Assembly: GCA_031362805.1 (NCBI GenBank)
Contig: JANLTG010000043.1
Location: 5,395 to 69,394, forward strand
Length of the DNA stretch: 64,000 nucleotides
Reading direction: 5' to 3'
Source: a bacterium
GTDB lineage: Bacteria; Verrucomicrobiota; Verrucomicrobiia; Limisphaerales; RI-55
Part shown: positions 1,323 through 37,106 of the stretch, one piece after another
Layout: each line of letters begins with the position of its first letter
How positions within the stretch are numbered: the first letter of the stretch is position 1
Notes under the pieces: model-generated
Seen by the model: only the letters and a program-made list of their open reading frames with translations
Database searches by the model: none
What the model was told of the DNA's origin: nothing
Made by a program: the position numbers and the translations under genes

Positions 1323-1930
1323 GCTGAGTCGTTGAGCACACGAAGCGCGGATTCATTCACCACGGAGGCGCGGAGGAGCGCTTCAAAAGCAGAAAACTGA
1401 AAGCAGAGAACTGAAATGTATGGCGTAAAACGTAAGGCGTAAGCGATTCAAAAGCGGAGAGCTGAAATCGGAAAACAGAAACGAACGACAGCCTGATCAG
1501 CGAACGCTCAACGTCGCAACAGGTAGAATTCCAAATTCAAAATTCGACATTTAAGACCATGATGGCTGCGAAAGTTGAACCGCTCATCGACGCGAATTCA
1601 CGCGAAGGACGCTAATCAATCAAAAGCGGAGAGCTGAAAATTGAAAGCTGAAATATAAAACGCAAAGCGTAAGGCGTAATCAGTAATCTGTGGACAGTGA
1701 TCCGTGATCGGTAATTCGTAAACTGGATGGCAGCACGTTTGGGGGGGTCCGTGCCGATCTATTTCGGCGGCGCAGCAGCACCGCCCTACCTTACAAGGAG
1801 GTTGGGGTTCGGCGCGAGGGCGCGCCGGACGGCAGCCGAGCCGGCTGCGCTCCCCGGTTCAAAAGCGGAGAGCAGAAAACTGAACGCGGAAATGATCTAG
1901 TGATGCTCCCGCGAAGAGATGCGAAGGACG
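1323..1930. repeat. Spacer composed of mosaic short-repeat modules (purine-rich heptads, GC hairpin + GCTCCCC head)
   Basis: Four copies of CAAAAGC-RGARARC-TGAAAnn heptad runs (near 1383, 1447, 1619, 1857). A run of about 16 in-phase heptads spans 1621-1730 (TGAAAAT TGAAAGC TGAAATA TAAAACG CAAAGCG TAAGGCG TAATCAG TAATCTG ...). The element GCGCGCCGGACGGCAGCCG..GCGCTCCCCGGTTCAAAAGCGG (1818-1868) recurs at 23988-24040. Confidence 0.85.
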
Positions 1931-2077
1931 CTAGAAATTCACGTAAACGAACTGGGGGATGCCGCTTCCGCCGCCGGAGCTGACACGATCGAGGAGGAAA
2001 ATGACGATCCAGAACACCTCGAGCGTCACCAGGATCAGCTTGCGGTTTTCGTGGAAAAGAGCGCGGAGCATTTTCAT
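1931..2077 (-). CDS. 48-aa single-TM micro-protein, DUF5989-like
   Basis: Below the ORF-track size cut-off. Hand translation: MKMLRALFHENRKLILVTLEVFWIVIFLLDRVSSGGGSGIPQFVYVNF*. It has a basic N-terminus, one TM helix and a C-terminal PxF(V/I)Y..F tail, as recalled for DUF5989 micro-proteins. It starts 29 nt after the MBOAT stop. Confidence 0.45.
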   Translation of the reverse strand: MKMLRALFHENRKLILVTLEVFWIVIFLLDRVSSGGGSGIPQFVYVNF

Positions 2078-2105
2078 AACAACCAGACGCGTTGCCGTTC
2101 ACATT

Positions 2106-3392
2106 TTAGAAAAGTTGACCGAGCACTGACGCCAACTGCTGGGAATCGAGAATGAATAGCAGTCCCAGCGCAAAGAAGTTGAACGAAAGAACCACACCGA
2201 GGGCGTAACTCAAAGGCGAGGTGAAATATTTCAGGGCGCCGGGATGGCGAACCTGGCGCTTCCATTTTTGATAAACATTGACGGCGGCAATGCCAATCCC
2301 GTGGTAAAGCCCCCAAAGAATAAAATTGAACGTCGGACCATGCCACGCACCACAGAGAAAAAAGGTGACGATGATGGCCAGATTGGAAATGACCAGCGGG
2401 TATTTTCGGAGCATTTCATTGCTCCGCAGCTTGCGAACCAGAGGCCAGTATACGTAATCCGTGAGCCACCCCGTCAGTGACATGTGCCAATTCGCCCAGA
2501 GTTGCTGAAGATTCTTCTTCAAGAACGGCTGATTGAAATTTTCGGGGAGGTTGAAACCCAGCAACCGCGCGCTGCCGATGGCAAGGTCGGTATAGCCGGA
2601 GAAGTCGATGTAGAAATAGAGGGCATAGGCATAGAGGCACAGGAGAACCTGCCACGGGGCCATTTCCGCCAACGGGACCTTGGTGCCAATGAGTGTGTAC
2701 GGGAACAGAAGCACGGTGATCACGAATTTCTTGAACAGGCCGTGAATGATCCGCTCCGCACCTGCAGAGAAGTCATCACGCCACGGCGCACGATTGGCGC
2801 GAGCAGAATGGGCGATAAAATCGTTGAACCGATTGATGGGACCGCTGACAAACGCGGGGAAGAAGAGGAGGAAGTTCAAAGTGTCCAGAAGGCGCGGACG
2901 CTTGATGGTGCCCTTGAACGATTCGATAAGGAAATGGATCGCCTTGAAGGAGGAATAGGAGATCCCGACCAGGAAGATGAAATCGGAAGCGCCCGACCCG
3001 AGGATTGATTTGTCGTGGAGGACGAGGGTCTGCAAAAAGCGGTACTTGAAAACCGCGAGCACAAACAGCACGAGCACGACGCCGAGAATCGCCAATGGAA
3101 GGCGCGACGACGGACGCTTCGCCAACGGTCCCTCGTTGAGGGCGAGTCCGATGCCATAGGTGACCAACGTCAGGCCACCATAAATCAGCAAGGCCGCGCC
3201 GTTGAATTGAGGCAGGGCCAGGAGCATTAAAACATTCGCGCCCAGCAGCAGCAGATCACCGACGGTGCCACGACGCGGAAGCAACCGGAGCGCGACAACG
3301 ACGATCGCAAAATAAGCCCAGAACGCGGCACTCGAAAAGAATTCGGCGGAAGGCAACCCGTGAAGGAACTGGGAGATTGATTCCAAGGTCAT
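2106..3392 (-). CDS. MBOAT-family membrane O-acyltransferase (AlgI/DltB/PatA-like)
   Basis: Track ORF is 2106..3503. The first ATG with a sensible N-terminus is at 3392 (MTLESISQFLHG...); the upstream codons read through heptad repeats. It is a multi-TM protein with the MBOAT signature QQLWANWHMSLTGWLTDYVYWPL (compare WRRWHISLSxWLRDYLYIPLGG). Confidence 0.85.
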   Translation of the reverse strand: MTLESISQFLHGLPSAEFFSSAAFWAYFAIVVVALRLLPRRGTVGDLLLLGANVLMLLALPQFNGAALLIYGGLTLVTYGIGLALNEGPLAKRPSSRLPLAILGVVLVLFVLAVFKYRFLQTLVLHDKSILGSGASDFIFLVGISYSSFKAIHFLIESFKGTIKRPRLLDTLNFLLFFPAFVSGPINRFNDFIAHSARANRAPWRDDFSAGAERIIHGLFKKFVITVLLFPYTLIGTKVPLAEMAPWQVLLCLYAYALYFYIDFSGYTDLAIGSARLLGFNLPENFNQPFLKKNLQQLWANWHMSLTGWLTDYVYWPLVRKLRSNEMLRKYPLVISNLAIIVTFFLCGAWHGPTFNFILWGLYHGIGIAAVNVYQKWKRQVRHPGALKYFTSPLSYALGVVLSFNFFALGLLFILDSQQLASVLGQLF

Positions 3393-3999
3393 TAGTACGA
3401 AAAGATGCAAGTCAGTTGACCGACGACCGACGACCGACGACCGACGACAGAGGACAGAGGACAGAGGACAGAGGACCGAAGACGGTAGACAGAGGACTGT
3501 CAAAAAAGGAAAGCAGCAGCACTTAACCGCCCGCCTTCATTCCTTGAACTTCGTCGCGGCACGCAGATGAACACAGATGGACGCAGATGAGCGGCCGAGG
3601 GAGTAATGGAGAGTTGGAGAGTTGGAATCGGACGACAGAGGACGGTGGACGGGTAAAGGAGAAAAGGAGCGGGGGAGCGGGGGAGCGGGGCGAAAGAGAC
3701 AGCCAACATTCAACGTTCAATGTTCAACTACCAAGGTGAGGGCGAAGGAGGTCGGAGTCTTTACGCGAATCAACACGAATTAACGCCAAGCGGAATCAGC
3801 CACGAAAGGGCGCAAAGGGCGCACAGTCCGTTTAACAGGAACTAACGGAGGAAGCGGAGGACGGAGGACCGAAGACGGTAGGCTGAAGACGGTCAAAAGC
3901 AGAAAACAGAAAGCGGAAATCAGTGGACCGACGACGGATGACCGAGGACAAGGAACGCTCAACGTCCAATGGCCAATGTTCAAAGCAGATACTGCGGCG
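3393..3999. repeat. 607-bp spacer made entirely of mosaic repeat modules
   Basis: Contains the GAC-phased heptad array, a TTAACC-CAGATG-type module, GGAGAGTTGGAGAGTTGG, GGAGCGGGGGAGCGGGGGAGCGGGG and AACRTTC heptads. It also contains TTTACGCGAAT..CACGAAT, GCCACGAAAGGGCGCAAAGGGCGCACAG, GTTTAACAGGAACTAACGGAGG and a CAAAAGC heptad run. All of these recur in other spacers. Confidence 0.9.
3418..3501. repeat. 12 consecutive in-register GAC-N4 heptads
   Basis: Counted base by base: (GACCGAC)x4 (GACAGAG)x4 GACCGAA GACGGTA GACAGAG GACTGTC. Confidence 0.95.
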
Positions 4000-10846: not shown

Positions 10847-11585
10847 GCAACGCTTCGCTGACTGGCAAAATTCTCGATCCGGATTTCATTGCCTGTCGCA
10901 CGACCTCTTCAAACAACCGCGGAGTGCAGCCAAAGCGGCTTGGCTGATCGCAGACGTCATGGGTGGCGAAGACAAGCCAGCCACAGGCTTGGGTATTCTG
11001 TTCAATGACTTGCTCGATCAGCGCGGGCGTGCTTTTCTCAATGAAGAATGCTCGAAGGTTGTTGAGATCCATCGTTCCAACGTTGAAGGTCTGTCCGCCG
11101 CCGCGGCAGCCGGCGAAGTACTTCGACGCTCGTCGTTTATTCTGCGGACGAGGGACATCGATGGGATACGACATGGTCTTGAACTCAGCGGTCGGCAGTA
11201 ACCGTTGCAACGATTCCCGGTTCTGAACGAGAGACCGGTCGAAGTCCTGAGAGGGGGTGTTCCACGCATGGTCGTGGCCAAAAGTATGGCAACCCAATTC
11301 GTGACCGGCAGATAAAAGTGGCTGGAAGTCGGCCTGTGAGAAGATCGGACCAACTGGTGAGTTGGCGCGATCCATCAATCCCAAGGCGGCATAAAAGGTG
11401 CCCCGGAGGTTGTGCCTTTGGAGAATCCCTCCCCCAACCTGTAGGGCGGTTCGTGGAAAATCGTCAAAACTGAATGAAATTAGTGGTCGGCTATTACGCA
11501 TTGGGACCATGCGCCGCACGGACAGTTGTGAAAGACTCAACCGAAATCGATCCCACGCTTTCGCCCAAATGCTGTTGACAGTCAT
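10821..11585 (-). CDS. Polysaccharide deacetylase (NodB homology, CE4)
   Basis: Shows SFSFDDFPRTAL (the DD metal/catalytic motif) and GHELGCHTFGHDH (the His-His motif). 254 aa. Confidence 0.8.
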   Translation of the reverse strand: MTVNSIWAKAWDRFRLSLSQLSVRRMVPMRNSRPLISFSFDDFPRTALQVGGGILQRHNLRGTFYAALGLMDRANSPVGPIFSQADFQPLLSAGHELGCHTFGHDHAWNTPSQDFDRSLVQNRESLQRLLPTAEFKTMSYPIDVPRPQNKRRASKYFAGCRGGGQTFNVGTMDLNNLRAFFIEKSTPALIEQVIEQNTQACGWLVFATHDVCDQPSRFGCTPRLFEEVVRQAMKSGSRILPVSEALHASVSVEK

Positions 11586-12958
11586 GCCAATGCCTGATTG
11601 ACGTGTGGGGCGGGATGCTCATTGAAAATGTCCGGAATGGCGTTGGCTGCCAGATAGGACCGGGGAGTTTCGATCAGCAGCAGCAGCATGAGAAACCAAC
11701 TCGGGTCGAGTCGGAAAAACGCAGTTTCGGAGTTGTTAAAGGCAATTCCCAACACCCAAATTGTCAGGGCCACTCGGCCGAACATATTTCCTGCAAGCAT
11801 GAGCCTGGCAGATCTTCGCCCCCAGACTACCAGTAACACTACCAGTAGCCCCACCCCGACAAAGCCACCGCCAAGATACATATCAATGAAGCCATTGTGC
11901 GCCGAGTTCATGAAAATGAACTCCTGTTGAATTCGTTCCGCCTCGCTGGTATGCCAAAATGAGAAATAGCCGCTCCCGAAGACCGGCTCTATTCTCGCCT
12001 GTTGCGCCATGTCCCAAATCTCAGTACGCCCGGTTAATGTTCTGCTCTTGCCCAATGCCTCCAGAATGCTACCAGACAAATCAAGGGATTTTTCAGAGAT
12101 GACAACAACCACGAAAACGGCGATACAACTTATCAGGACTCTAAAAGGGTTTTGCATACGAGCCAATCGTCCAGAACCCCACAACAGAAAGCACCCCAGG
12201 CTGAAACAGAGAAGCGAAGTGACGCTTTGACAAATGGCCATCAGCCACCCGCCCATAGCGAGAATTCCGAAACGAAGCCAAATCGCACGCCGCTTCTCCG
12301 CGCTTGGTTCCTGACGGTATAGCGCCATCAAATCCAGAACAATGAACAGCCCGAACAGAAACAAAATGGCTCCGAGATGGCTCTTATGCATGCTGACCCC
12401 GCATGGCATATTGTCGCCGCCCCTGGCAACCGTCCGTCCTATGGACGGAAAGTATTTGATGAACACGACGGAGAGGGGAAACATGACGTAAGCGGCGCGC
12501 ACCACCACTAGGCGAATGGACTCCAGCGGGTTGACTTCGGTCAGCACTACCAGCGCCGTAATCACCGCGCCATAATCCTTCACGATACGCTTAAGCGTGG
12601 GAAAACTAAATTCCGACCAACTGGCGCTCAAGGCCAGGAACAAGTAAAGCAGCATCAGAATCTTGTTTCGAGAAAAGAACGCTCCCCAAGAGAAGCCGCG
12701 CCGTTTCAGGACGATCAAAGCGGCGACCATTAGGCCCAAGAAGATAGCCAGATCAATGGGATTCCCATCCTGATCCCCACCGCTGGTACCAATCCCGATC
12801 CATGCCAGCCAGAACGAGTAGGGGCGTGAACCAATCGTGCCCAGCCACAACATCGGAATCAGCAGCGCCTTGGAAGACATTTGGCGCTCCTTCATGTCCT
12901 GTCGGATCAGCCAGTAAATGAATCCGTAGGAAAGCCATAGTGCTAACAGAGGAGGCAT
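11582..12958 (-). CDS. O-antigen ligase/Wzy-like polymerase family membrane protein
   Basis: 458 aa and polytopic. It has a Wzy_C-like loop and ...MNSAHNGFIDMYLGGGFVGVGLLVVLLV. There is a 4-nt overlap with the downstream gene. Confidence 0.65.
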   Translation of the reverse strand: MPPLLALWLSYGFIYWLIRQDMKERQMSSKALLIPMLWLGTIGSRPYSFWLAWIGIGTSGGDQDGNPIDLAIFLGLMVAALIVLKRRGFSWGAFFSRNKILMLLYLFLALSASWSEFSFPTLKRIVKDYGAVITALVVLTEVNPLESIRLVVVRAAYVMFPLSVVFIKYFPSIGRTVARGGDNMPCGVSMHKSHLGAILFLFGLFIVLDLMALYRQEPSAEKRRAIWLRFGILAMGGWLMAICQSVTSLLCFSLGCFLLWGSGRLARMQNPFRVLISCIAVFVVVVISEKSLDLSGSILEALGKSRTLTGRTEIWDMAQQARIEPVFGSGYFSFWHTSEAERIQQEFIFMNSAHNGFIDMYLGGGFVGVGLLVVLLVVWGRRSARLMLAGNMFGRVALTIWVLGIAFNNSETAFFRLDPSWFLMLLLLIETPRSYLAANAIPDIFNEHPAPHVNQALA

Positions 12959-13936: not shown

Positions 13937-14137
13937 GGCGAATTAGCTCTTAACCGGAACAAATATGTGAAACCACGAAGGGACACGAAGCCACACGAAT
14001 AAAGACGGGCGTTCCTTGGCCGCGCGGCGGCAAACCAAACGGTGCGGGTCGGTGCGGGAGTCAAACGGTGTTCGGCGAGACGCCGAACACGGCACGCGGG
14101 ACGCGTGCGCTCCCCAATCCAACTGCATGGATCCGAC
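13937..14137. repeat. Spacer with two perfect GC hairpins followed by a GCTCCCCA head, plus a CACGAA-type module
   Basis: GTGTTCGGCG-aga-CGCCGAACAC lies at 14068-14090 and GCACGCG-gga-CGCGTGC at 14092-14108, followed by GCTCCCCA. GAAACCACGAAGGGACACGAAGCCACACGAAT lies at 13967-13998. Confidence 0.8.
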
Positions 14138-16968: not shown

Positions 16969-17008
16969 TGTCTTCAAAGCGAATGCGGGCCTTACCGTCA
17001 GACGGCGC

Positions 17009-19459: not shown

Positions 19460-19509
19460 GAAGGATCAGCCTTGATACTTCGTTAACCAGGCCGACGCGT
19501 GGGCCACGA

Positions 19510-20715: not shown

Positions 20716-20734
20716 GTAGCGGAATGCCTTACAA

Positions 20735-23323: not shown

Positions 23324-23419
23324 GTTCAAAAGCAGAAAACTGAAAGCTGAAAGCAGAAATGAACTGCTGACCGGAGGCTGTTCAAAAGCAGAAAACTGAA
23401 AGCGGAAATTAAATGCGGT

Positions 23420-23791: not shown

Positions 23792-24075
23792 AATCAAAAG
23801 CAGAAAACGGAAAACTGAAAACGGAAAGTGGAAATGTTAAACCGCAGATGAGCAGGAGAAGGAGAAAAGGAGCGGTGGAGTGAGCGAGGCGGACAAAACA
23901 TCCAACATCCAACATCCAACGTTCAACTTCGAGGGCAAGGCGCGCCCGGAGGATCGCGCCCCACCTGGAGTGAGGTTAACGTCCGTCGCGAGGCGCGCCG
24001 GATGGCAGCCGGGGCGGCCGCGCTCCCCGGTTCAAAAGCGGAAATGCCGACGGTCATAGACCGCCGCTACAGGGG
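23792..24075. repeat. Mosaic repeat spacer
   Basis: Contains CAAAAGC heptads, TTAAACCGCAGATG, AACATCC/AACGTTC heptads and GGCGCGCCCGGAGGATCGCGCCCCACCTGG (identical to the copy at 31058-31087). It also contains the GCGCGCCGGATGGCAGCCG..GCGCTCCCCGGTTCAAAAGCGG element. Confidence 0.85.
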
Positions 24076-25362
24076 CTAGGCTTTGTGGAGCTGGCCGGGG
24101 TTGGTGGGGAGGCCGTGCATCGCGTTGCGGGTGTCGACGATGAGCTTAGCCCACTCAGCGAGCTGGGTGTAGTTCACGTTGGCGTGCGCGGTCGAAATCA
24201 GGACGAGATCATAGCTGGAGATCGTGGCCTGGTTCCAGTCAATGGACTTAACGCCCGCCCACTGCGGATGCTCGCGCGTGGGCCGAATGACGGGCACATA
24301 GGGATCGTGATAGGCAACATCGGCACCGCGTTGCTTGAGCAACTCGAGCAAGTGGTAGCTCGGCGATTCGCGATCGTCATCGACGTTCGCCTTGTACGAA
24401 AGGCCAAGGATCAAGATGCGACTGCCGTTCACGGGCTTCCGGACGCCGTTCAACGTCTCGGCCACGCGATTGATCACATGCTCGGGCATGTGGGTGTTGA
24501 TCTCGCCGGCGAGCTCGATGAAACGGGTGTTCTGGCCATACTCGCGCGCTTTCCAGGTCAGGTAAAAGGGATCGATGGGGATGCAGTGTCCGCCGAGGCC
24601 CGGTCCGGGATAGAAGGCCATGTAACCGAAGGGTTTGGTCTTGGCGGCGTTGATGACTTCCCAAATATCGATGCCCATGGCGGCGTAGACGACCTTGAGC
24701 TCGTTGACGAGGGCGATGTTGACGCCACGGAAGATGTTCTCAAGCAGCTTGGTGGATTCGGCGGCGCGGCAGGACGAGACGGGGACAATGGTCTTAATGG
24801 CGAGGGAATAGAGCGCCTTCGCCTTTTCCAAGCAGGCGGGAGTGTAGCCGCCGACGACCTTGGGGATGATGGCGACCTTGCTGTCGGGATTGCCGGGGTC
24901 TTCGCGTTCGGGCGAAAAGGCGAGATGGAAATCAGTGCCGGCTTTCAGGCTCGAGCCGGATTCGAGCACGGCCCGGAGATCTTCATCGGTGGTGCCGGGG
25001 TAGGTGGTGGACTCAAGAACAACCAGAATGCCCTGGTGCAAATGCGGGGCAATGCTGCGGCCGGTATCGAGGATGTAAGAGATGTCGGGTTCGCGGTTTT
25101 TGTTGAGCGGCGTGGGGACGCAGATGATGACGGCATCGACTTCCTTGACGCGGGCGAAATCGGCGGAGGCGGTGAAGCGACCGGCGGAGACCTGTTCCTG
25201 CATGGACTCGCTCGAGATGTGCTTGATGTAGGACTGGGCAGTGTTGCAGGCGGTGACTTTTTTCTGATCGATGTCGAGGCCGAGGACCTTGGCGCCGGAG
25301 CGGGCGAACTGGAGGCAGAGCGGGAGACCGACGTAACCGAGGCCGACGATGGCGATTTTCAT
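24076..25362 (-). CDS. UDP-N-acetyl-hexosamine 6-dehydrogenase (WbpA/WecC/TviB family)
   Basis: 428 aa. MKIAIVGLGYVGLPLCLQFARSGAKVLGLDIDQKKV... and ...GPGLGGHCIPIDPFYL are typical of the WbpA/TviB branch of nucleotide-sugar dehydrogenases. Confidence 0.8.
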   Translation of the reverse strand: MKIAIVGLGYVGLPLCLQFARSGAKVLGLDIDQKKVTACNTAQSYIKHISSESMQEQVSAGRFTASADFARVKEVDAVIICVPTPLNKNREPDISYILDTGRSIAPHLHQGILVVLESTTYPGTTDEDLRAVLESGSSLKAGTDFHLAFSPEREDPGNPDSKVAIIPKVVGGYTPACLEKAKALYSLAIKTIVPVSSCRAAESTKLLENIFRGVNIALVNELKVVYAAMGIDIWEVINAAKTKPFGYMAFYPGPGLGGHCIPIDPFYLTWKAREYGQNTRFIELAGEINTHMPEHVINRVAETLNGVRKPVNGSRILILGLSYKANVDDDRESPSYHLLELLKQRGADVAYHDPYVPVIRPTREHPQWAGVKSIDWNQATISSYDLVLISTAHANVNYTQLAEWAKLIVDTRNAMHGLPTNPGQLHKA

Positions 25363-25892
25363 AAAAGTAGAAAGCAGAAAGCAGAAAGCAGAAAGCGGAA
25401 ATTGTGGGCGGAGCTTTTACGCGAATTTCGCGAATTCACACGAATACAAAGCTGAAGTGGCCGCGAAAAGGCACAAAGGACACAAAAGCGGAGACAAAAA
25501 ATCGAACATCGAACACTCAACTTTCAACGTTCAACTACCAGGGCGAGGACGAGGATGACGGTGGACGGTGGACGGTGGACGGTGGACGGTGGACGGTGGA
25601 CGGTGGATCCCTCTCAATAACTGAAAGCGGAAAGCGGAGAGCTGAAATTGTGGGCGGAGTTTTTACGCGAATTTCGCGAATTAATACGAATCAACGCCAA
25701 GCTGAACTAGCCGCGAAAGAGCACATAAGGCGCACAGTCTGTTTAACAGGAGCTAACGGAGTGAGGGTCGAAAACGGGAAAACTTGAAGACACGAAAACG
25801 AGTGCCGGGCCGAAGACCGGCGCTCCCCACCTGCTGACGAGGCCTGGAGTTTCAGTTGATTTGGGACTCGTGTAACTCGTCCCTCCGGATGG
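25363..25892. repeat. Mosaic repeat spacer with a ~246-bp internal duplication
   Basis: The block (AGAAAGC)n-GGAAATTGTGGGCGGAG-TTTTACGCGAATTTCGCGAATT.A.ACGAAT...GCCGCGAAA.GCACA.AAGG occurs at about 25366-25490 and again at about 25621-25745. A (GACGGTG)7 array lies between the copies, and a 125-bp element lies at the right end. Confidence 0.9.
25557..25607. repeat. Perfect tandem heptamer (GACGGTG)x7
   Basis: Counted base by base: 25557-25605 holds seven exact units, plus a partial GA. Confidence 0.95.
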
Positions 25893-28097: not shown

Positions 28098-28973
28098 AGC
28101 GGTAGAGTTCAGAGATCCGACATCAAAGGCAGTTTAACCACTAATGCACACTAATCGATACGAATCTATGGGAGAGGGACAGGTGACAGGGGGTGAGTGT
28201 TCAGCCGAGGAAGGAGACCCGGTGAGGAGGCGAAGGAAAACAGCGAACGCTCAACGTTCAACGTTCAACATTCAACATTCAACGTTCAACCACCAAGGCG
28301 AGGCCGAAGGAGTTCGGAGTTTTTACGCGAATTTCGCGAATTAACACGAATCAACGCCAAGCTGAATTAGCCGCGAAAGAGCACATAAGGCGCAAAGATC
28401 GGTTAACAGGAGCGTGCGAAGGGGGACAAAACATCGAACATTCAACATTCAACATTCAAATGCCGAGGAGGAGGACGTCTTCAAAAGCAGAGAGCTGAGA
28501 CTTTTAACCGCAGATGGACGCAGATGGGGACTGCCGGCTGGCAGCGCGGCAGCACTTTGCAAGCGAGGCCGAGGGGGCCAATGAAGGAGCGGAAATGGAA
28601 ACCACGAATCAACACTAACTGACACGAATTCTTAAACCGCAGATGGACGCGGAGGAGCGGACAGGACTGGAAAACAAGAAAACTTGAAGACACGAAAACG
28701 AGTGCCAGGCCGAAGACCGGCGCTCCCCACCGGCTGACGAAGCCCGGAGTTTAAGTTGATTGGGGACTCGTGGAACTCGTCCCTCCGGATGATCGAGGAC
28801 GATTGTCAAAAACAGAAAGCGGAAAGCGGAGAGCTGAAATGTTTAACGGCAGATGAACACAGATGGACGCAGATGGGGACTGCCGGCTGGCAGCGCGGCA
28901 GCACTTTGCAGGCGAGGCCGAGGCGGCCAATGAAGGAGCGGAAATGGAAACCAAGAATTGACGCCAAGCTGAA
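28098..28973. repeat. 876-bp mosaic repeat spacer with a ~349-bp higher-order duplication
   Basis: An 8-unit AAC-heptad array spans 28239-28294. TTTACGCGAATTTCGCGAATTAACACGAAT begins at 28321. CAGATGGGGACTGCCGGCTGGCAGCGCGGCAGCACTTTGCA.GCGAGGCCGAGG.GGCCAATGAAGGAGCGGAAATGGAAACCA occurs at 28521 and again at 28870. The second copy of the 125-bp element spans 28668-28792. Confidence 0.9.
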
Positions 28974-30107
28974 TCAGACGGAAGCGCTGGACTTGTTGGC
29001 CGGGAGTTTTTGGAGGACTTCGGCGAGGGCCTCGGCGACGCGGCGCAGTTGAGCCTCGGTGAGCTCGGGGAACATGGGCAGTGAGAGGAAGCCGTCTGCG
29101 CACCGCTCGGAAACGGGCAGGGAACCGGCGGGAACCCCCAAGTGCTCGTAGGCTTTCATACGATGCACGGGAACCGGATAATGGATGCCACAGGAGACGC
29201 CGGCGGTGTTCATGGCGTTCAGAACGGCATCGCGATGCGCGACCCGAATGGCGTAGATGTGAAAGACGGGCTGGGCGTAGTCCGCAACGGTGGGGCGGAT
29301 GACGGGGAGCTCGCGGAGTAATTCGTGATAGACGGCGGCGTGCTGGCGGCGGAGTTCATTGCCGCGAGCAAGGTGCTTGAGCTTGGCGCTAAGCACGACG
29401 GCTTGCAGGCCGTCCATGCGGGCGTTCCAACCATCGAGGACATGGTCGTATTTCTTGCGCTGGCCGTGATCGCGGAAGAGCCGGATGTAATCCGCGACGT
29501 CGTCGCGATTGGTAATGACACCACCCGCCTCACCGAAGGCGCCCAGGTTTTTGCCAGGATAGAAACTGAAACAGCCGGCATCGCCCAAGGTGCCGATGGG
29601 GCGACCCTGGTAACGCGCGCCGTGGGCCTGGCAGGCATCCTCGACGACGGCGAGCCCGTGCTTCTTCGCAATGGCAAGGATGGGGTCCATGTCGGCCGGT
29701 TGACCGAAGAGATGAACAGGAACAATCGCGCGGGTCTTCGGGGTGATGGCGGCCTCGATCAGTGACGGATCCATCGTATAGGTCTTTTCGTCAACATCGA
29801 CGAAGACCGGGCGAGCGCCGCAGTGGGTGATGGCCTCGACGGTGGCCATGAAGGTGGCGCTGACGGTGATTACTTCATCGCCCGGTTTGACGCCGACGGC
29901 ATATAGGGCGGCCCAGAGAGCGTCGGTGCCGTTGGCGACGCCGAGGGAGTGTTTGGCCTCGCAGAAGGCCGCGAACTCGCGATCGAATTGATCAACGAAC
30001 TTGCCACCAGCGAAGGCGCAGGAGGCGATGACTTCGTCAAAGGCCCGGTGAATCTCGGGGAGCAACGGTTGGTGATGGAGCTGGAGATCGAGGAAGGGAA
30101 CTTTCAT
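28974..30107 (-). CDS. DegT/DnrJ/EryC1/StrS-family PLP-dependent sugar aminotransferase (WbpE-like)
   Basis: 377 aa. Shows MKVPFLDLQLHHQPLLPEI..., GDEVITVSATFMATVEAI and the CFSFYPGKNLGAFGEAG Lys motif. Confidence 0.9.
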   Translation of the reverse strand: MKVPFLDLQLHHQPLLPEIHRAFDEVIASCAFAGGKFVDQFDREFAAFCEAKHSLGVANGTDALWAALYAVGVKPGDEVITVSATFMATVEAITHCGARPVFVDVDEKTYTMDPSLIEAAITPKTRAIVPVHLFGQPADMDPILAIAKKHGLAVVEDACQAHGARYQGRPIGTLGDAGCFSFYPGKNLGAFGEAGGVITNRDDVADYIRLFRDHGQRKKYDHVLDGWNARMDGLQAVVLSAKLKHLARGNELRRQHAAVYHELLRELPVIRPTVADYAQPVFHIYAIRVAHRDAVLNAMNTAGVSCGIHYPVPVHRMKAYEHLGVPAGSLPVSERCADGFLSLPMFPELTEAQLRRVAEALAEVLQKLPANKSSASV

Positions 30108-31168
30108 AGGATAAAGCGGAAAGCAGAGGACCGAAGACCGACGACGGAAAACAGCGAACGCTCAACGCTCAACGTTCAACTTTCCACATTCAACCGCCAA
30201 GGCGACGCGAAGGTGACCGGAGTTTTTACGCGAATTGCACGAATTCACACGAATGCCGGAGAGATCAATCGACCGACGGTTTTCCAACGCCACAAGACGA
30301 GGCGGTCTCGGAGAGACGCGCCCCACCGTATTCAAACACAGATGGTCGCAGATGAGCGGGTGAGTGGAGACGAACGAAAACAGCGAACGCTCAACGTTCA
30401 ACGTTCAACGTTCAAAGCAGTTATTTACGAAGACACAAAGAACGCGGAGCGAGGAACAAGGATCGAAAACGGGAAAACTTGAAGACGTGAAAACGAGTGC
30501 CGGTTCGGAGACCGGCGCTCCCCAAGCGAGGACGACGACGAAATGGGAACCAAAGTTTTACGCGAATTGCACGAATTCACACGAATGCCGGAGAGATCAA
30601 TCGGCCGACGGGATTTCCAACGCCATAAGACGAGGCGGTCTCGGAGAGAACCGCCCCACCGTGTTTAACCGCGGATGCTTCAAAAACAGAAAACGGAGAG
30701 CAGCGAGTCGAAATTTTAACCACAGATGAACACAGACGAACACAGATGGACGCAGATGAGCGGGTGAAGGAGTGTTGGAGTGAGTGGCGAGGACCGACGA
30801 CGGAGGACAAGGAACATTCAACGTTCAACGCTCAACATCCAACCGCCAGGTGAGGGAGAAGGTGATCAGAGTTTCTACGCGAATTAACACGAATTAGCGC
30901 AAATAAGTGCTGAGTCTGTTACCACAGTGGCGCGAAGCTTTTAACCACGGAGGTAAGAAGAACACGAAGTCGGTTGGCCACGAAAGGGCGCAAAGAACGC
31001 AAAGTCCGGTTAACAGGAGCGTGCGAAGGGGGACAAAACATCGTACATCGAAGGCTAGGCGCGCCCGGAGGATCGCGCCCCACCTGGAACAAGGCCAGGA
31101 ACATCGAACATTCAACGCTCAAGGTCCACTATCCAGGTCGCAGGGAAGATAGTGGCAATCAACGGGAG
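30108..31168. repeat. 1.06-kb mosaic repeat spacer with a ~332-bp duplication
   Basis: A 10-unit xAC heptad array spans 30129-30198. The segment TTTTACGCGAATTGCACGAATTCACACGAATGCCGGAGAGATCAATCG.CCGACGG..TTTCCAACGCCA.AAGACGAGGCGGTCTCGGAGAGA..CGCCCCACCGT, about 125 nt long, occurs at 30225 and again at 30557. A third, partial copy of the 125-bp element spans 30463-30525. Decamer ACRCAGAYGR repeats span 30725-30760. Confidence 0.9.
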
Positions 31169-31672
31169 TTAGGCGGGCACTTCGGGGTCGGTGATGGATC
31201 GGAGAACGCGGGCGGGGTTGCCGGCAACGATGACCCCGGGCGGGACATCCTTCGTGACGACGCTGCCGGCGCCCACGATGGATTTCTCACCCACGGTGAT
31301 GCCGCCCAAAAGCGTGGAACCGGAACCGATGGACGCACCGCGCTTGATCAGCGTCTGCTGGCAGGCCCAATCCGCCTCCGTCTGAAGCGCGCCCGAGACC
31401 GCGGTGGCGCGGGGGAAACGGTCGTTTACAAAGGTGACGCCGTGGCCTACGAAGACTTCGTCTTCGATCGTGATTCCTTCGCAGATGAACGTGTGGCTGG
31501 AGATCTTGCAGCGGGCGCCGATCCGGGCACCCTTTTGAATTTCAACGAAAGTGCCGATCTTCGTTTCATCGCCAATTTCGCAACCGTAGAGATTGACGAA
31601 GGCGAACAGTTTGACGCCGCGTCCGAGTTTGACGTCAGGCGAAATACGGACAGTGGAAGTCGCGCTTTCCAT
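31169..31672 (-). CDS. Left-handed beta-helix N-acetyltransferase (WbpD-like)
   Basis: The ATG at 31672 gives MESATSTVRISPDVKLGRGVKLFAFVNLYGCEIGDETKIGTFVEIQKGARIGARCKISSHTFICEGITIEDEVFVGHGVTFVNDRFPRA.... This is a hexapeptide fold like the WbpD/acetyltransferases of diacetamido-sugar pathways. Confidence 0.75.
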   Translation of the reverse strand: MESATSTVRISPDVKLGRGVKLFAFVNLYGCEIGDETKIGTFVEIQKGARIGARCKISSHTFICEGITIEDEVFVGHGVTFVNDRFPRATAVSGALQTEADWACQQTLIKRGASIGSGSTLLGGITVGEKSIVGAGSVVTKDVPPGVIVAGNPARVLRSITDPEVPA

Positions 31673-31708
31673 AGAGCCAGGTCGAAAGGTTCGCACAAGA
31701 GCAGGGGA

Positions 31709-32893
31709 TCAAGACGCCGAAAAAGCTGAGGGCTGAACCGGCGAGGGTGCCGAACCAGCCAGGGGAACTGCTGCGGGTGCAGGCTCCACGGGCGTGGGGC
31801 ATTCCGTGAGACGCGGGGCTCCCGAGGCCGCGAGGCGGTGATGCAGGCCGGCCGGGGCAGAGGCTTCGGTGGACAAGAATGGAATGGCGGCGCCGTTCTG
31901 ACGGAGGGAAATGGATGCGGCCTCGAGAATGCGAACCAACTGCAGACCCTCCAAGCCGCTGGAGATCGGTTTGCGACCCTCGTTGATGCAATCGAGGAAG
32001 TGCTGGCATTCCACTTTCAACGGTTCCTCCTGCTTGATGTAGGGGACGTGAAGATCGCCGTAATGATACGAATACTGAAATTCAGCGAAGGTGTCGTAGT
32101 GCGGCGGGCGATCGACGCGGGCATCGTAGATCTTGATTTTTTCAAGCGGCTGAAGGTCGTCATAGACAATCATGCGCTTGGTGCCGACGATCGTCATCTC
32201 GCGGACCTTGCGCGGGTCCAACCAACTGTTTTGAACCGTCGCAAACCGGCCATTGCGGAAGGAAAGGGAGAGGTTGATGATATCCTCAATGCCCACCGTG
32301 ACATTGGCGTTGCCCTGGCAGTTTACGGAGAGCGGATGCTCCTCCAGGATGTAAAGAATGATCGAGAGGTCGTGCGGAGCGAGATCCCACATGACGTTGA
32401 TATCCTTCTGAAAGAGGCCGAGATTCAAACGCCGGGAGCTGATGTAACAAAGGTCGCCAATGTCGCCGCGGTCGACGATCTCCTTGATCTTCCGGACGGG
32501 GGACGAATAAAGGAACGTGTGGCCGATCATGACCACGAGCCCCTTCCGCGCAGCGATCTCGTTGAGCTCCTCACATTGCGCGGCGGAACTGGCCATCGGC
32601 TTTTCAATGAAGACATGCTTGCCTGCCATCAGGACCTGGCGAGCCATCGGGTAATGAAACCGGACGGACGTCGCGACGACGATGGCATCCAGCTCCGGGT
32701 CCTCGATCAAATCCTCGAGCCGGCTCGTGGTTTGGACCGCGGGATACAGCTCCTTCATGTGGCGGAGCCGGGCTTCACTGAGATCGCAAACCGTCTTAAG
32801 ACGGCACCCCCCCAGGTTATTGAAGTTGCGGATCAGGTTGGGACCCCAATAGCCGCAGCCAACCACGCCGATGTTGATCTTCTTGTGAGTCAT
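31709..32893 (-). CDS. Gfo/Idh/MocA-family NAD-dependent sugar oxidoreductase (WbpB-like) with a low-complexity C-terminal tail
   Basis: The N-terminus reads MTHKKINIGVVGCGYWGPNLIRNF...DAIVVATSVRFHYPMARQVLMAGKHVFIEKPMA. The last ~60 aa (…PAGLHHRLAASGAPRLTECPTPVEPAPAAVPLAGSAPSPVQPSAFSAS) are P/A-rich and end in repeat-like sequence. Confidence 0.75.
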   Translation of the reverse strand: MTHKKINIGVVGCGYWGPNLIRNFNNLGGCRLKTVCDLSEARLRHMKELYPAVQTTSRLEDLIEDPELDAIVVATSVRFHYPMARQVLMAGKHVFIEKPMASSAAQCEELNEIAARKGLVVMIGHTFLYSSPVRKIKEIVDRGDIGDLCYISSRRLNLGLFQKDINVMWDLAPHDLSIILYILEEHPLSVNCQGNANVTVGIEDIINLSLSFRNGRFATVQNSWLDPRKVREMTIVGTKRMIVYDDLQPLEKIKIYDARVDRPPHYDTFAEFQYSYHYGDLHVPYIKQEEPLKVECQHFLDCINEGRKPISSGLEGLQLVRILEAASISLRQNGAAIPFLSTEASAPAGLHHRLAASGAPRLTECPTPVEPAPAAVPLAGSAPSPVQPSAFSAS

Positions 32894-32920
32894 ACGCAGA
32901 TAAACGCGGCCGCCCGGCTT

Positions 32921-33631
32921 TCAAGCGCGATCGCGAACGGGAGCGGTTGGGTTGACGAGGGTTGAGGTGCGCGAGCCCACGCTGGCTTCCCAAACCTGAT
33001 GGAGCAGGACCCCGGCGGTGCGCAGCATGATCGAGATATCCAAGCCAAACGACACCTGGCGAGTGTACAGAATGTCGAGGTCAATCATCTCCTCAAAAGT
33101 CGTGCGATTCTTGCCGGTAACCTGCCAGAGGCCGGTAATGCCCGGCACGACCGCCAGCCGCTTTTTGTGGTGATCGTGGTAGAGGGCAAACTCGTAGGGG
33201 AGGCACGGGCGAGGGCCGACAATGCTCATTTCGCCCCGCAGCACATTGAGGAGCTGCGGCAATTCATCGAGGCCCGAGGATCGGAGCAGTCGCCCGCCGG
33301 GGATAATCCGAGAGTCGTTACCGCGATCCAGTTTGGTCATCGGGGTCGACGACTTCATCAAGGAGGCGAGATGCAGCTCGTGGCCGGAGGTGCAAGCGTT
33401 CGGCTTCATCGTGCGGAACTTGTAACAGCGGAAGGGTTTGCCAGCGCGGCCGACGCGAGTCTGCGAGAACAGTATCGGGCCGGGAGAACTGAGCTTGATG
33501 AGGAGGCCAATCAACACCGTGAGCGGCGCCAGGAGAGGCAACGCGAGCACGAAAAGGCAGAGATCAAGCGCCCGTTTCCATAAGGGAGCGGGGAACGACG
33601 CGAGCGTCTGGATTGGCGAAACTACGTTCAT
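32921..33631 (-). CDS. Polyprenyl-phosphate sugar-phosphotransferase (bacterial sugar transferase, WbaP C-terminal/EpsB type); first gene of the EPS operon
   Basis: The ATG at 33631 gives MNVVSPIQ.... One TM helix is followed by SPGPILFSQTRVGRAGKPFRCYKFRTM...GLDELPQLLNVLRGEMSIVGPRP...PGITGLWQV, the PF02397 signature. Confidence 0.9.
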   Translation of the reverse strand: MNVVSPIQTLASFPAPLWKRALDLCLFVLALPLLAPLTVLIGLLIKLSSPGPILFSQTRVGRAGKPFRCYKFRTMKPNACTSGHELHLASLMKSSTPMTKLDRGNDSRIIPGGRLLRSSGLDELPQLLNVLRGEMSIVGPRPCLPYEFALYHDHHKKRLAVVPGITGLWQVTGKNRTTFEEMIDLDILYTRQVSFGLDISIMLRTAGVLLHQVWEASVGSRTSTLVNPTAPVRDRA

Positions 33632-34452
33632 TGGCAACTCGAAGGGCCTGGATACAGAGCCGGGGTGGACCAGGCAATCGAACCGGGAAAATGGGTGTCC
33701 GCACGCTGCCGCACTTGATCATTCGGTGCCGAATGAGCGGAGAAATGGCGAGCCAGTATAGGTTGAGCGTGTTTCATCAAGACCAGCGTCCAAAATACGG
33801 TACAAACTACTCCCGAGAGGTCCAGTCAGTCAGAATCGCACGCAAGCGAGTTCGAGCAGGTAGCACTCGGCATACCCAGTTCAGGTTTGCACAACACCCC
33901 GCCCCGCAAGCAGCTCGGATTGGCGCAACCCAGCAATGCAATCGCCCATTTTGAACAAAATGCGGCGATAAGGATAGTTTTCTGGAAGGAATGGAGAAGT
34001 GGCGAGACAGTTACCAACCGTTAAGAAGATTCCGAGTGTCTGATTATTAGGCAGGGACAACTTGAAACGAAGACCCCCAGAAGCCAAGCCAATACAGAGC
34101 GAACCGCGCATCGGCAAACGCATTGCAAACACACTTCGCATACACAACTCGCCAAAAAAAGGTAGCCGCATTCGTACCGCAAAGATTAACCACTGGAGAT
34201 GCCTACGCAAATTGCATTCTAAGCTACTAATTGGAAGCGAGATACGGAACGCATATTTCTGGCATCTTGAAATGCCCCGGCGAAGGTCAAGCTTAACGAT
34301 TGTAAGGAAATCGTTACATATCTGCTGCTCCAGCCACGAAAAGGAAGCGTCAAGTTACTTCCAAGTAACAACTTAGGTAATAGCCGCACAACTGTAAGAG
34401 ATTCCGACGAAAGACATGGCCCCAAGGAGGGTGGCTTACTCTCAGCAATAAC
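33632..34452 (-). promoter_or_regulatory. ~0.8-kb ORF-poor, visibly AT-richer leader/promoter region of the EPS operon
   Basis: No protein-like ORF on either strand. It lacks the mosaic modules. Three hairpins or palindromes lie at 34261-34276, 34294-34316 and 34354-34369. It sits between the ubiA-like stop (34453) and the priming transferase ATG (33631). Confidence 0.5.
33932..33947 (-). promoter_or_regulatory. Candidate sigma-54 (-24/-12) promoter
   Basis: Minus strand reads GGGCGATTGCATTGCT, which gives GG-N10-GC with a perfect TTGCT -12 box and a weak -24 box (GGGCGA versus TGGCAC). It lies about 300 nt upstream of the operon ATG. A sigma-54 activator (PrsR-like) is encoded in the window. 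Confidence 0.2.
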
Positions 34453-35316: not shown

Positions 35317-36182
35317 GGTTTCGCCGATGAGCCGAGCCGCAACCAGACAACCAAGGGGAAGTGATCGCTGGGATACTGTTCATCGCGAGCGAAATCGATG
35401 ATCTGGATGGCCGTCGTCTGGACCGCGCCACGCGTGAGGATCCAATCGATGCGCTGCGAATCGCGGACGGCCGGCTTGAAGCCATTAAAGGTATTCAAGG
35501 TGGGATCGCCCTTTCGTTCAGTTGCGGTCTTCCATGTGTCCGCGAAGTAACCGTCGCCCACGAGCACCTCGTAGGCGGGATTGTCGCCAGCCGTGGCATT
35601 GAAGTCGCCGGTGAGGATGATGGGCAGGGCGGGGTTCAGCTTGGCGACACGTTCGCGGATCAGCTTTGCGCTTTTCTCGCGGGCCTCCTGGATTTGGTGA
35701 TCGAAGTGCGTGTTCAACAGATAGAACTCCTGGTTGGTGGTGCGGTCCTTGAAGCGAATCCACGTGACCATGCGGCGATTGGAATGGCCCCACGTCGTGG
35801 AGCCGATGACCTCCGGCGTGTCGCTCAGCCAGAAGTGGTCGTACTCGAGCGGCTCGAAGCGGGCGCGCTGGTAATAGATGGCCATAAACTCGCCGCGACT
35901 GCCGCCGTCACGGCCGAGGCCGAGCCACTCGTATTCGGGAAGATCGGCGGCGAGCTCCTTCAACTGGGAGTAAACTCCTTCCTGCGTGCCAATCAGGTCG
36001 GGCAGCAACTCGCGGATACACGCGCGCATAAGCGGGCGCCGATCCGGCCAGGCGTTCGGCGGTTGCGCGCTGGCGTAGCGCAGGTTGTAGGTCATGACGA
36101 CGAGCGGTTCGGCGGCGCGGCCCGTCAACGCGATCACGAGCAAACCACCGAAGAGCAAAGCGCGAAGGAACGAAGGTTTCAT
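35313..36182 (-). CDS. Secreted endonuclease/exonuclease/phosphatase (EEP) family protein
   Basis: The ATG at 36182 gives MKPSFLRALLFGGLLVIALTGRAAEP (signal peptide). The body shows VMTYNLRY...GTQEG...LLNTHFDH...ILTGDFNA...SDHFPL, the EEP catalytic motifs. Confidence 0.85.
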   Translation of the reverse strand: MKPSFLRALLFGGLLVIALTGRAAEPLVVMTYNLRYASAQPPNAWPDRRPLMRACIRELLPDLIGTQEGVYSQLKELAADLPEYEWLGLGRDGGSRGEFMAIYYQRARFEPLEYDHFWLSDTPEVIGSTTWGHSNRRMVTWIRFKDRTTNQEFYLLNTHFDHQIQEAREKSAKLIRERVAKLNPALPIILTGDFNATAGDNPAYEVLVGDGYFADTWKTATERKGDPTLNTFNGFKPAVRDSQRIDWILTRGAVQTTAIQIIDFARDEQYPSDHFPLVVWLRLGSSAKP

Positions 36183-36330
36183 ATTGGCGACCAAGGAAAG
36201 TCAACCCGGGATCGGGAAGCCATTTCACGGACGGGAGCGAAGTGTGGGAAGGCGGCCGAAGGGCGTCAAGAACGCTGCGACCAGCGAATTCTTACTTGTC
36301 TTGAACCGAACGCTCACCGGAAATGGCGCC

Positions 36331-36753
36331 ATGTTGCGTCAACAACTCGATGAACTTTCCATCCGGACCCAAGGGCGCGGTTTTACCATGATCACCGCTG
36401 AGGTCTCGCGGATCGTGTCGGTTGCGAAGATGCAAACCGGGCTGGTCACCCTGCACCTGCGGCACACCTCGGCATCGCTGCTCATCCAGGAAAATGCCGC
36501 TCCCGATGTTCGTCGCGACCTCGAGGCGTTCTTCGCCCGACTCGTGCCGGATGGCGACCCGCTGTTCGCCCACACACTCGAAGGCGACGACGACATGCCG
36601 GCCCATGTGCGAACGGCGCTGACGGCGGTGAGCTTGAGCATCCCCATCGTGAACGGCCGGATGGTGCTGGGAACGTGGCAGGGGATTTATCTGTGGGAAC
36701 ACCGGACGCATCCGCATACCCGGCAGATCGTCGTGCATGTGCTGGGGGAATGA
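36331..36753 (+). CDS. yjbQ: YjbQ/UPF0047 family (secondary thiamine-phosphate synthase-like) protein
   Basis: The ATG at 36331 begins MLRQQLDELSIRTQGRGFTMITAEV...LVTLHLRHTSASLLIQENAAPDVRRDLE...HTLEGDDDMPAHVRTAL...GTWQGIYLWEHR. Confidence 0.85.
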   Translation: MLRQQLDELSIRTQGRGFTMITAEVSRIVSVAKMQTGLVTLHLRHTSASLLIQENAAPDVRRDLEAFFARLVPDGDPLFAHTLEGDDDMPAHVRTALTAVSLSIPIVNGRMVLGTWQGIYLWEHRTHPHTRQIVVHVLGE

Positions 36754-37106
36754 GCGGGGATGCGCGCAACATCGAACATCCAACATCGAACATCCAACAT
36801 CGAACATTCAACGTCGAACATTCAACGTCCAAGCAGCAGGCCGGGTCCCGAAGCTTTACGCGAATTTGCGCAAATTGACACGAATTGGATTAGCCACGAA
36901 AGAGCACAAAGGACGCGAAGGACGGAAAGCGGAGAATTTTAACCACAGATGGAGCGGGTAAGGGAGCAAAGGAGCAAAGGGGCGCTGGAGCAGTGGAGTG
37001 TTGGAGTGTTGGAGTGAGTGCGAGGCGAAACATCGAACATCGAACACTGAACGTCCGGGCGCTGCCAAGCGCTGCTGGCCGATCTGGAGATCAGCGTTCC
37101 ACGCTA
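36754..37106. repeat. Mosaic repeat spacer between convergent genes
   Basis: Nine AAC heptads span 36768-36830 (AACATCG AACATCC ...). The spacer also contains TTTACGCGAATTTGCGCAAATTGACACGAAT, GCCACGAAAGAGCACAAAGGACGCGAAGG, TTTTAACCACAGATGG and GGAGTGTTGGAGTGTTGGAGTGAG, then AACATCG heptads again. Orientation matches the EPS-locus copies. Confidence 0.9.

Follow-up and report, generated by a model that had tools for sequence, protein, structure and literature searches.

Head-to-tail copies of a modular non-coding repeat in the long spacers of a verrucomicrobial polysaccharide gene cluster

Introduction

Among the short repeats known from bacterial genomes, those of the REP/BIME/REPIN group, i.e., the repetitive extragenic palindromic sequences (REPs) of the Proteobacteria together with the bacterial interspersed mosaic elements (BIMEs), the REP doublets forming hairpins (REPINs) and the REP-associated tyrosine transposases (RAYTs), carry a conserved GTAG or CGTC tetranucleotide at one end of the REP (Di Nocera 2013, PMC3733652). 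A second group comprises heptameric repeats such as the short tandemly repeated repetitive (STRR) sequences of cyanobacteria, GGGNATC in Xanthomonas and Nostoc (PMC4692102) and TAACTGA in the Beggiatoaceae (PMC4679880). Binding of S1, Csp or CsrA, or the formation of G-quadruplexes, has been proposed for these families (PMC4679880, PMC4692102), and for the TAACTGA heptamers a role in translation via binding to leaders (PMC4679880). Further families include the pneumococcal BOX (boxA-boxB(n)-boxC) as well as the ERIC, Correia and RUP elements, the miniature inverted-repeat transposable elements (MITEs) and the attC/VCR sites of integrons. Here, these systems are compared with the repeats that occupy the long spacers of an exopolysaccharide (EPS) gene cluster in a bacterium of the Verrucomicrobiota (Limisphaerales, RI-55), located on a stretch of 64,000 nt (assembly GCA_031362805.1, contig JANLTG010000043.1, positions 5,395 to 69,394 of the forward strand) that is called the window throughout.

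In this window, one non-coding modular repeat, arranged in head-to-tail copies, fills long gaps between genes. The feature belongs to known kinds of bacterial repeat DNA, of which it is a lineage-specific variant, and is neither an EPS-specific system nor a BIME, and we consider it reasonably probable that the spacers are local pile-ups of lineage-generic non-coding repeat DNA, consisting of a one-armed derivative of REPIN- or MITE-like elements that was amplified locally, and not a device in the service of EPS synthesis. The repeat families of the Verrucomicrobiota, an abundant and poorly studied soil phylum, are essentially undescribed. Such repeats break short-read assemblies, create spurious open reading frames (ORFs) and in the present case turn a compact operon into a series of genes up to 1 kb apart, so that recognising the composite and its modules aids annotation as well as the quality control of metagenome-assembled genomes (MAGs). 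The locus also offers a test case for the tolerance of bacteria towards long untranslated spacers in biosynthetic clusters, and for the question why heptameric repeats dominate some lineages and invade coding linkers.

Repeat content and module order

A preliminary description of the window had listed eight spacers packed with recurring short modules, and Tandem Repeats Finder (TRF), BLAST and shuffled sequences confirm both these modules and the accompanying tandem arrays. Arrays with a period of 6-21 make up 24% of the spacer bases, in contrast to 0.85% of the remaining window, and dozens of arrays with periods of 7, 8, 9 and 10 lie in precisely the eight spacers; two module patterns have 5 and 11 matches in the window, where shuffles give a chance expectation of 0.00. 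The statement that the spacers are built almost entirely from modules went too far, as the named modules cover 34-78% of each spacer, and of the eight spacers, all of which had been assigned to the EPS operon, the one at 36754-37106 is located between convergent non-EPS genes. A ninth patch of modules, absent from the earlier list, was found at 22597-22714 in frame inside a gene, and four gaps of the EPS cluster (13937-14137, 21971-22216, 33638-33880 and 34211-34452) are free of modules. With the covariance models of Rfam 15, no spacer gave a match at the gathering score or at E<=1, the sole match in the window being a tRNA-like gene elsewhere. An origin of the spacers as gene graveyards was likewise considered and dropped, as tblastn searches with all proteins of three syntenic relatives, including a FemAB-like one (see below), revealed no remnants.

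Read along the plus strand, the modules have the canonical order A-H-M-L-B-C-D-E-F-G and together form a composite of about 350 bp. Module A comprises TTCAAAAGC, then AAAGCRG heptads and then GGAAATG, H starts with TTAACC and continues with RCAGATGRAC 10-mers, M is made of GGAGNNNN 8-mers, L of GACNNNN heptads and B of AACRTTC heptads, which are nearly self-complementary. A small hairpin, CCAAGG..CCGAAGGAGTTCGG, represents module C, and D reads TTTACGCGAATT-NNNCGAATT-NNNACGAAT, with 9-mers of the TTTACGCGAATT type; E lies between D and F in the composite, and F and G correspond to GCCRCGAAAGRGCRCAWAGG and GTTTAACAGGAGCTAACGGAG, respectively. Module D comprises three direct units of 9-10 nt with the consensus tTTTACGCGAATT... 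and measures 31 nt, the conserved unit being about 33 nt long and its flanks not conserved. Beyond the composite there are additional hairpin pieces, designated I, J-K, N, O and P. Palindromic pieces are confined to the small GC hairpins J, N, O, P and C, in contrast to the direct arrays that make up A, B, D, H, L and M.

The order of the modules had been called shuffled, yet 57 of the 84 neighbour transitions are canonical as compared to 37.4 +/- 2.8 in within-spacer shuffles, none of which (0/10,000) reached 57. Two copies of the composite are full and many are truncated (A-H-M-B, B-C-D-E-F-G, A-D-F and others), and all are arranged head to tail. The uniform orientation reported earlier is borne out by the 11-mers with at least three copies, for which there are 871 forward and 16 reverse-complement occurrences, and by BLAST comparison of the spacers with the window, in which 144 of 144 non-self matches were plus/plus and all fell within spacers; a search for inverted repeats in the spacers found none. 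Also confirmed was the absence of modules from the housekeeping half at 37.2-64 kb, which is weak evidence given that this half is nearly devoid of intergenic space.

Segments of 50-117 bp are duplicated among the spacers with 84-97.5% identity, e.g., H-I-I2 (about 100 bp, twice, 97%), D-P (twice, 94%) and K-J (two to three times, 88-94%). The closest pairs between different spacers (97.5% and 94%) are those of the two spacers flanking the Wzz gene, which fits local copying.

With regard to described elements, the heptameric families are the closest functional and structural analogues, since they too consist of tandem 7-nt units in intergenic regions with a purine- or G-rich non-coding strand upstream of ORFs, occasionally extend into ORFs and lack a mobile element. 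Correspondingly, the arrays of the window are enriched in intergenic DNA, and in all of them the purine-rich strand is the non-coding one upstream of ORFs. However, no single heptamer dominates here: the period-7 arrays, which number about 20 and are confined to the spacers and the gene linker, involve at least five unrelated heptads (AAAGCRG, AACRTTC, GACGGTG, GACCGAC and GAGGACA), which coexist in an ordered composite with arrays of 8, 9 and 10 nt and have no general G-quadruplex potential. BOX, ERIC, Correia and RUP elements share with the composite a fixed order, variable internal units, truncations and a location in untranslated regions with possible effects on transcription or mRNA stability, but BOX and Correia elements fold in their entirety and are bounded by terminal inverted repeats, which are lacking in the composite of about 350 bp that is found head to tail in one locus. 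Finally, attC/VCR sites are likewise repeats of about 100 bp that share one orientation and separate co-directional genes; in the present case, however, there is no integrase, the genes are syntenic with those of relatives and not cassettes, and the repeats are not imperfect palindromes.

Support from independent assemblies

In a MAG assembled from short reads, repeats might be collapsed, expanded or chimerically joined, and the spacers could then be assembly artefacts. Three independent Logan contigs, which derive from two sequencing runs, match the window with 100% identity across gene-spacer junctions, namely L035 over 17207-23575, L042 over 31059-33366 and L041, which stems from the second run and occurs in two samples, over 28924-30253. 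Besides the junctions, these contigs reproduce the in-gene array and, in full, one spacer (23330-23419). They break within spacers at modules D and N, which together with the near-identical duplicates of 50-117 bp in the spacer interiors is what an artefact would lead one to expect. The junctions are therefore reproducible, and the independent support covers the junctions and not the interiors of the long spacers. As gene order moreover agrees with that of three relatives and comparable repeat-rich spacers are present in many other assemblies, an artefact is highly improbable.

The spacers as insertions into a compact operon

Three syntenic loci (L036, L038 and L040) were identified by a search for homologues of a deacetylase-like protein encoded in the window, followed by look-ups of the respective contigs. 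Their gene order is Bac_transf-GFO-Hexapep-DegT-FemAB-like-Wzz-(IVP)-deacetylase-like-GT4, and their proteins share 35-79% identity with those of the window. At the Hexapep/DegT junction, the genes of these relatives overlap by 20 nt, overlap by 4 nt or are 2 nt apart, and the same junction measures 1,061 bp in the window, so that the view of such long intra-operon spacers as unusual is well founded. Because the syntenic EPS loci of all three relatives are compact, the spacers can be regarded as lineage-specific insertions.

Two differences in gene content are both bordered by repeat spacers. The FemAB/Acetyltransf_6-like gene that lies between DegT and Wzz in the relatives is missing from the window, where its position is taken by the spacer 28098-28973 without any remnant, and a UDP-glucose dehydrogenase (UGDH) gene at 24076-25362, between the Wzz and IVP genes, is extra with respect to the three loci. 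In the relatives, heptad arrays of other sequence are found at the Wzz/IVP/deacetylase junction, which marks this junction as a recurrent soft spot.

The deacetylase-like family itself contains a hypervariable linker between the motifs FPFWV and GYVELPYTL, which is repeat-filled in all homologues and in many species consists of translated heptad arrays. In the window, the linker has LSAF repeats and harbours the patch at 22597-22714 (+), i.e., A-type heptad arrays in two units of about 60 bp, in frame within the deacetylase-like gene 22217-23323(-). The linker is made of 19.7 copies of CCCCGAC in L040 (10602-10742) and of inverted heptad pairs in L036 (10621-10718) and L038 (10613-10694).

Arrays of this kind raise the question of phase variation, in which slippage by 7 nt would toggle EPS genes or the frame of the deacetylase-like gene. 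Such contingency tracts are classically associated with surface-polysaccharide genes, several arrays are perfect or nearly so (7.3 x GACGGTG at 100%, 9.4 x GACCGAC at 93% and 5.4 x AAAGCAG at 93%), and one array lies in a coding region where a step of 7 nt means a frameshift. However, most arrays, including the longest, are found in mid-spacer outside promoters and ORFs, those in genes are imperfect (71-92%), no length differences exist among the three independent contigs of the two runs, and in the relatives heptads adjoin genes of every kind. Phase variation is accordingly given very little credence here.

Of note, a gene coding for a 23S-rRNA-IVS/Avd-like four-helix-bundle protein (IVP) is located at the Wzz/deacetylase junction in three of the four genomes (window 23420-23797 (-), L036 9266-9685 and L040 9317-9955), each time with heptad or octad arrays on both sides. 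The copy in L040 is interrupted by a GIY-YIG ORF, resembling a homing-endonuclease insertion. The IVP gene was considered as a carrier of the repeats and dropped, as it is absent from all loci with module D in the genome scan. Beside the deacetylase-like gene of the L038 EPS locus there is furthermore an IS630-type (DDE_3) transposase gene (11108-12208 (-)); as a source of modules H and D it was rejected, its terminal repeats being unrelated to either.

Modules H and D across the wider lineage

About 130 other Verrucomicrobia-like loci contain the core modules H and D. Exact matches to the D pattern were obtained in 34 genome stretches, of which 20 are labelled Verrucomicrobiota, and in more than 120 metagenome stretches. 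In the relatives, there are several D loci per MAG next to unrelated genes, amongst others those for PFOR, MurJ, ThrRS, DnaG, FtsK and a histidine kinase, and in 131 distinct Verrucomicrobia-like loci the orientation of D relative to co-directional neighbours is evenly split (30 vs 30). The link to EPS genes that the preliminary description had implied therefore fails for D at the level of the lineage, and a generic repeat in both orientations without such a link is the outcome that had been named in advance as speaking against it. As judged by this distribution, the core modules are generic intergenic repeats of the Verrucomicrobia and not specific for EPS loci.

An inverted partner within 250 nt accompanies 47 of the 131 D copies (36%), and the resulting doublets have a modal length of 80 bp with a loop of 18 nt (range about 65-90 bp). 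Whatever the orientation of the gene, the TTTACG end of D is nearer to the gene end than the other end (median 68 nt vs 182 nt). As in the window, H precedes D in the relatives, where H-D...D'-H' units as well as H...H' units with TTAACC/GGTTAA ends give the family a REPIN- or MITE-like appearance. Selection of the doublets at the RNA level was examined through G.U asymmetry and rejected, the sense strand being more stable in 11 and the antisense strand in 20 doublets; that the sense RNA is not the more stable one argues for an element acting at the DNA level. In 750 kb of sequence from relatives, heptads form the most frequent class of tandem repeat, with 121 arrays, 76% of which lie in the 26% of bases that are intergenic.

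Given these doublets, the term BIME-like was a fair first description, although the defining features of BIMEs are absent from the window. The modules resemble the REP group in being short, abundant, extragenic and mosaic, the H/D doublets of the relatives, with their short loops and their position near gene ends, are REPIN-like, and REPs together with RAYTs have been described in the verrucomicrobium Opitutus terrae (PMC3733652), all of which would be in keeping with true REPs or BIMEs moved by a RAYT whose gene lies in another part of the genome. Within the window, however, the units form direct 7-10-nt arrays instead of the imperfect palindromes of 20-40 bp that define REPs, D being three direct repeats without a stem-loop; orientation does not alternate, with 0 of 144 matches on the minus strand, and there are no inverted pairs of the REPIN type; the order is a single collinear one; neither the D consensus nor H, which begins with TTAACC, provides a GTAG or CGTC tag; no RAYT is seen; and plain tandem arrays constitute about a quarter of the spacers. 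True REPs or BIMEs are thus quite improbable. The likeness to MITEs applies to relatives and viral contigs, in which non-coding H-...-H' units of 100-200 bp start with TTAACC and end with GGTTAA; neither a target-site duplication nor a parent insertion sequence was identified for them, and the copies of the window are single arms that lack the second one.

Outside the Verrucomicrobiota, the exact D pattern with its 23 specified bases, for which the chance expectation is well below one match, is found in Flavobacterium (L001, L003 and L024), in Treponema MAGs (L016, L019, L028 and L033) and in two further stretches (L092 and L121). These copies, too, have inverted partner arrays and ends of the TTAACC or GTCAACGAA type. 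Judging from such matches, the H/D family spans phyla.

Among viral or prophage contigs (L164-L180 from IMG/VR, and L163), module H (TTAACCRCRGATGRACRCRGATG) was detected in 17 stretches, often as a palindromic TTAACC...GGTTAA unit and sometimes beside AATCGTA heptads, and one viral contig has two copies of module D. When the literature was searched for the module sequences, nothing but unrelated primer matches was returned.

Transcription and translation across the spacers

In the sense of the mRNA, the spacers are 63% pyrimidine with a C/G ratio of 1.34, as compared to 53% and 1.09 in coding sequence. RNA that is rich in C and poor in G resembles the rut sites used by Rho. In addition, the three copies of module J consist of a core stem of 5-6 pairs (extendable to about 9) followed by GUUUUC...UUUUC and are predicted terminators, their distances from the preceding stop codons being 64, about 245 and about 650 nt. 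Copy 1 (25778-25829 (-)), 64 nt downstream of the Wzz stop codon, is a GC hairpin followed by GUUUUCGUGUCUUCAAGUUUUC, and copies 2 (28678-28729 (-)) and 3 (30473-30524 (-)) are terminator-like as well, the stem of the latter being one pair longer than in the other two. The C-rich RNA and the J hairpins suggest that the spacers separate transcription units, which they would probably insulate from one another by intrinsic termination together with Rho loading.

A further step would be to regard the spacers as purpose-built insulators or attenuators whose read-through is controlled by a NusG-family antiterminator, as in the JUMPStart/ops-RfaH system or with UpxY of Bacteroides. EPS and lipopolysaccharide operons classically require antitermination. 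The composition of the spacer RNA and the three J hairpins would fit such a device, as would the unremarkable global structure, for which folding of whole spacers revealed no significant bias on either strand (z-scores of +1.65 and -1.5). However, the composition follows from the repeat content without any need for selection, the operon of the relatives runs without spacers, no NusG paralogue is encoded in the window, a sigma-70 promoter scan gave no sites within the spacers, and matches to the sigma-54 pattern are at chance level (29 found vs 33 expected). We therefore consider a dedicated insulator distinctly unlikely.

With respect to translation, a Shine-Dalgarno-like GGAG precedes almost no gene of the window, and the leaders are plain, often pyrimidine- or A/U-rich. 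At four genes, whose starts lie at 23323, 23797, 25362 and 30107, module A stops 0-8 nt short of the ATG, a position in which it is acceptable as a leader given that the genome hardly uses Shine-Dalgarno sites. The modules might on these grounds be selected cis-acting RNA elements whose CUGCUUU leaders recruit S1 or a Csp/CsrA-type protein and tune translation, for which the heptamers cited above (PMC4679880, PMC4692102) provide a precedent; every copy is pyrimidine-rich in the mRNA sense, and the heptads of the relatives have a mild bias of the same sign. On the other hand, about 12 of the 17 copies of A are found in spacer interiors distant from any start, and as the terminal module of the composite A will abut whatever adjoins. 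Its sequence is private to this genome, identical heptads occur in frame within the coding linker, and genes without A have leaders that are equally plain. There is thus a small though not negligible probability that the modules act in this way.

Origin of the composite repeats

For the origin of the spacers as local accumulations of generic repeats, the following scenario can be proposed. H and D would derive from the widespread family of inverted REPIN/MITE-type doublets of about 80 bp that occur in any intergenic context and in either orientation. A one-armed H/D derivative may have inserted into the very short gene junctions of an EPS operon that was originally compact, these junctions being possibly the only entry sites tolerated in a packed operon. 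In place, it would have been multiplied by segmental duplication, unequal recombination or gene conversion, and slippage could have lengthened the internal arrays of 7-10 nt. As a consequence, the genes, now 0.1-1 kb apart, would be separated by untranslated RNA with three terminator-like J hairpins, and module A would serve as an unstructured leader lacking a Shine-Dalgarno site. Local growth would account for the direct orientation, the conserved order, the head-to-tail truncations and the closest copies in neighbouring spacers. In particular, the uniform orientation is better explained by the mode of growth than by an orientation rule, because D follows no such rule in the lineage.

Several observations weigh against this scenario. 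No transposase or RAYT was detected in the window by Pfam, as had been noted previously, and no vehicle of entry was found. The databases contain no close relative, the nearest homologue being 62% identical, neither an insertion polymorphism nor an intermediate state was seen, and a 23-mer of module A had zero matches in JGI metagenomes; for this organism, the spread and orientation of the modules are known from the window only. Overall, the terminator scan gave about as many sites as shuffles would (20 found vs 19.2 expected). Co-orientation, fixed order and the location of A at four start codons would fit a selected RNA- or protein-binding function equally well, and the bias of the relatives' heptads towards a pyrimidine-rich sense strand, albeit mild, is 14 vs 5. 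Finally, D is near-exact across many species including a Flavobacterium isolate and Treponema MAGs, which exceeds what one would expect of a decaying selfish repeat and is the one feature that possibly points beyond selfish DNA.

It is conceivable, therefore, that the iteron-like H/D arrays and the heptads are not passive junk and instead reflect a sequence-specific system, so far unrecognised and common to several phyla, of which they would be the footprint or the target. Such a system, which may involve a protein binding the triple direct repeat or an activity that adds repeats from a template or recombines them, would explain the near-base-exact conservation of the non-palindromic D in Verrucomicrobiota, a Flavobacterium isolate, Treponema MAGs and viral contigs, and likewise the TTTACG ends abutting gene ends, the fixed module order and the in-frame linker heptads of many species. 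We assign only a small probability to this possibility, and local amplification of a generic repeat remains the preferred reading.

Layout of the individual spacers

All module orders given in this section are read on the plus strand. The spacer 1323-1930, between the small ORF/MBOAT genes and the SnoaL gene, contains A heptads, degenerate pieces of D/E and hairpin O (1817-1869). In the spacer 3393-3999, which separates the methyltransferase gene from an MBOAT gene, GACCGAC and GAGGACA heptads are found together with the first full composite (3500-3850, A-H-M-L-M-B-C-D'-E-F-G) and a second, truncated copy (A-L-B). The short spacer 23324-23419, from the IVP (Avd-like) gene to the deacetylase-like gene, holds two A modules, one of which ends 5 nt before the ATG, and that between the UGDH and IVP genes (23792-24075) carries A-H-M-B and hairpins N (23938-23969) and O (23990-24042).

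On one side of Wzz, the spacer 25363-25892, leading to the UGDH gene, reads A-D-F-B-L(7 x GACGGTG)-A-D-E-F-G-J-K, with A abutting the ATG at 25362 and K the Wzz stop codon; on the other, the spacer 28098-28973 between DegT and Wzz is composed of B-C-D-E-F-G2, two H-I-I2 units (28504-28609 and 28843-28958) and J-K. The longest spacer, between Hexapep and DegT (30108-31168), comprises A-L-B-D-P, J, D-P, the second full composite (30680-31043, A-H-M-L-B-C-D'-(extra)-F-G2) and hairpin N. Outside the EPS cluster, B-C'-D'-F and A-H-M-B occupy the spacer 36754-37106 between the convergent genes for UPF0047 (plus) and an FtsX-like protein (minus). Exact plus-strand copies of D lie at 25417-25445, 25663-25691, 28323-28351, 30226-30254 and 30558-30586, and variants near 3762, 30876 and 36857.

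Gene content of the window

Genes, including those by which the orientation of D in the relatives was judged, were predicted with a caller based on codon-usage log-odds and trained on the window. The EPS-type polysaccharide cluster occupies the minus strand between about 2 and 36 kb and, according to Pfam, includes genes for MBOAT, methyltransferase, Wzx, Wzy, GT2, GT4 and AsnB-like proteins and two UGDHs, as well as for a Wzz/tyrosine-kinase, DegT, a hexapeptide transferase, a GFO oxidoreductase, an initiating sugar transferase and others. At 37-64 kb, genes for DnaE, SPFH proteins, a histidine kinase with an NtrC-type regulator, ZnuA, an RND pump, a subtilase and a metal ABC transporter are densely packed on both strands with hardly any intergenic space. 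The named homologues of one protein of the window belong to Chthoniobacterales and Terrimicrobiaceae.

Directly downstream of the MBOAT gene, a 48-codon ORF (MKMLRALFHENRKLILVTLEVFWIVIFLL...) at 1931-2077 (-) without a Pfam match probably codes for a small membrane partner protein. Within the EPS cluster and on the strand of its genes there is also a tRNA-like gene at 15994-16069 (-), which matches the Rfam tRNA model with 45 bits and which ARAGORN reports as 'tRNA-???' with a 4-base anticodon (ggca), an anticodon loop of 9 nt and a CCA end that is encoded. It directly follows the ORF 16060-16977, for which a weak match to the GNAT fold was obtained (E=0.009), and the same cluster of relatives encodes FemAB-like transferases, which depend on aminoacyl-tRNA; the tRNA-like gene may thus be a candidate for a dedicated non-ribosomal tRNA donor.

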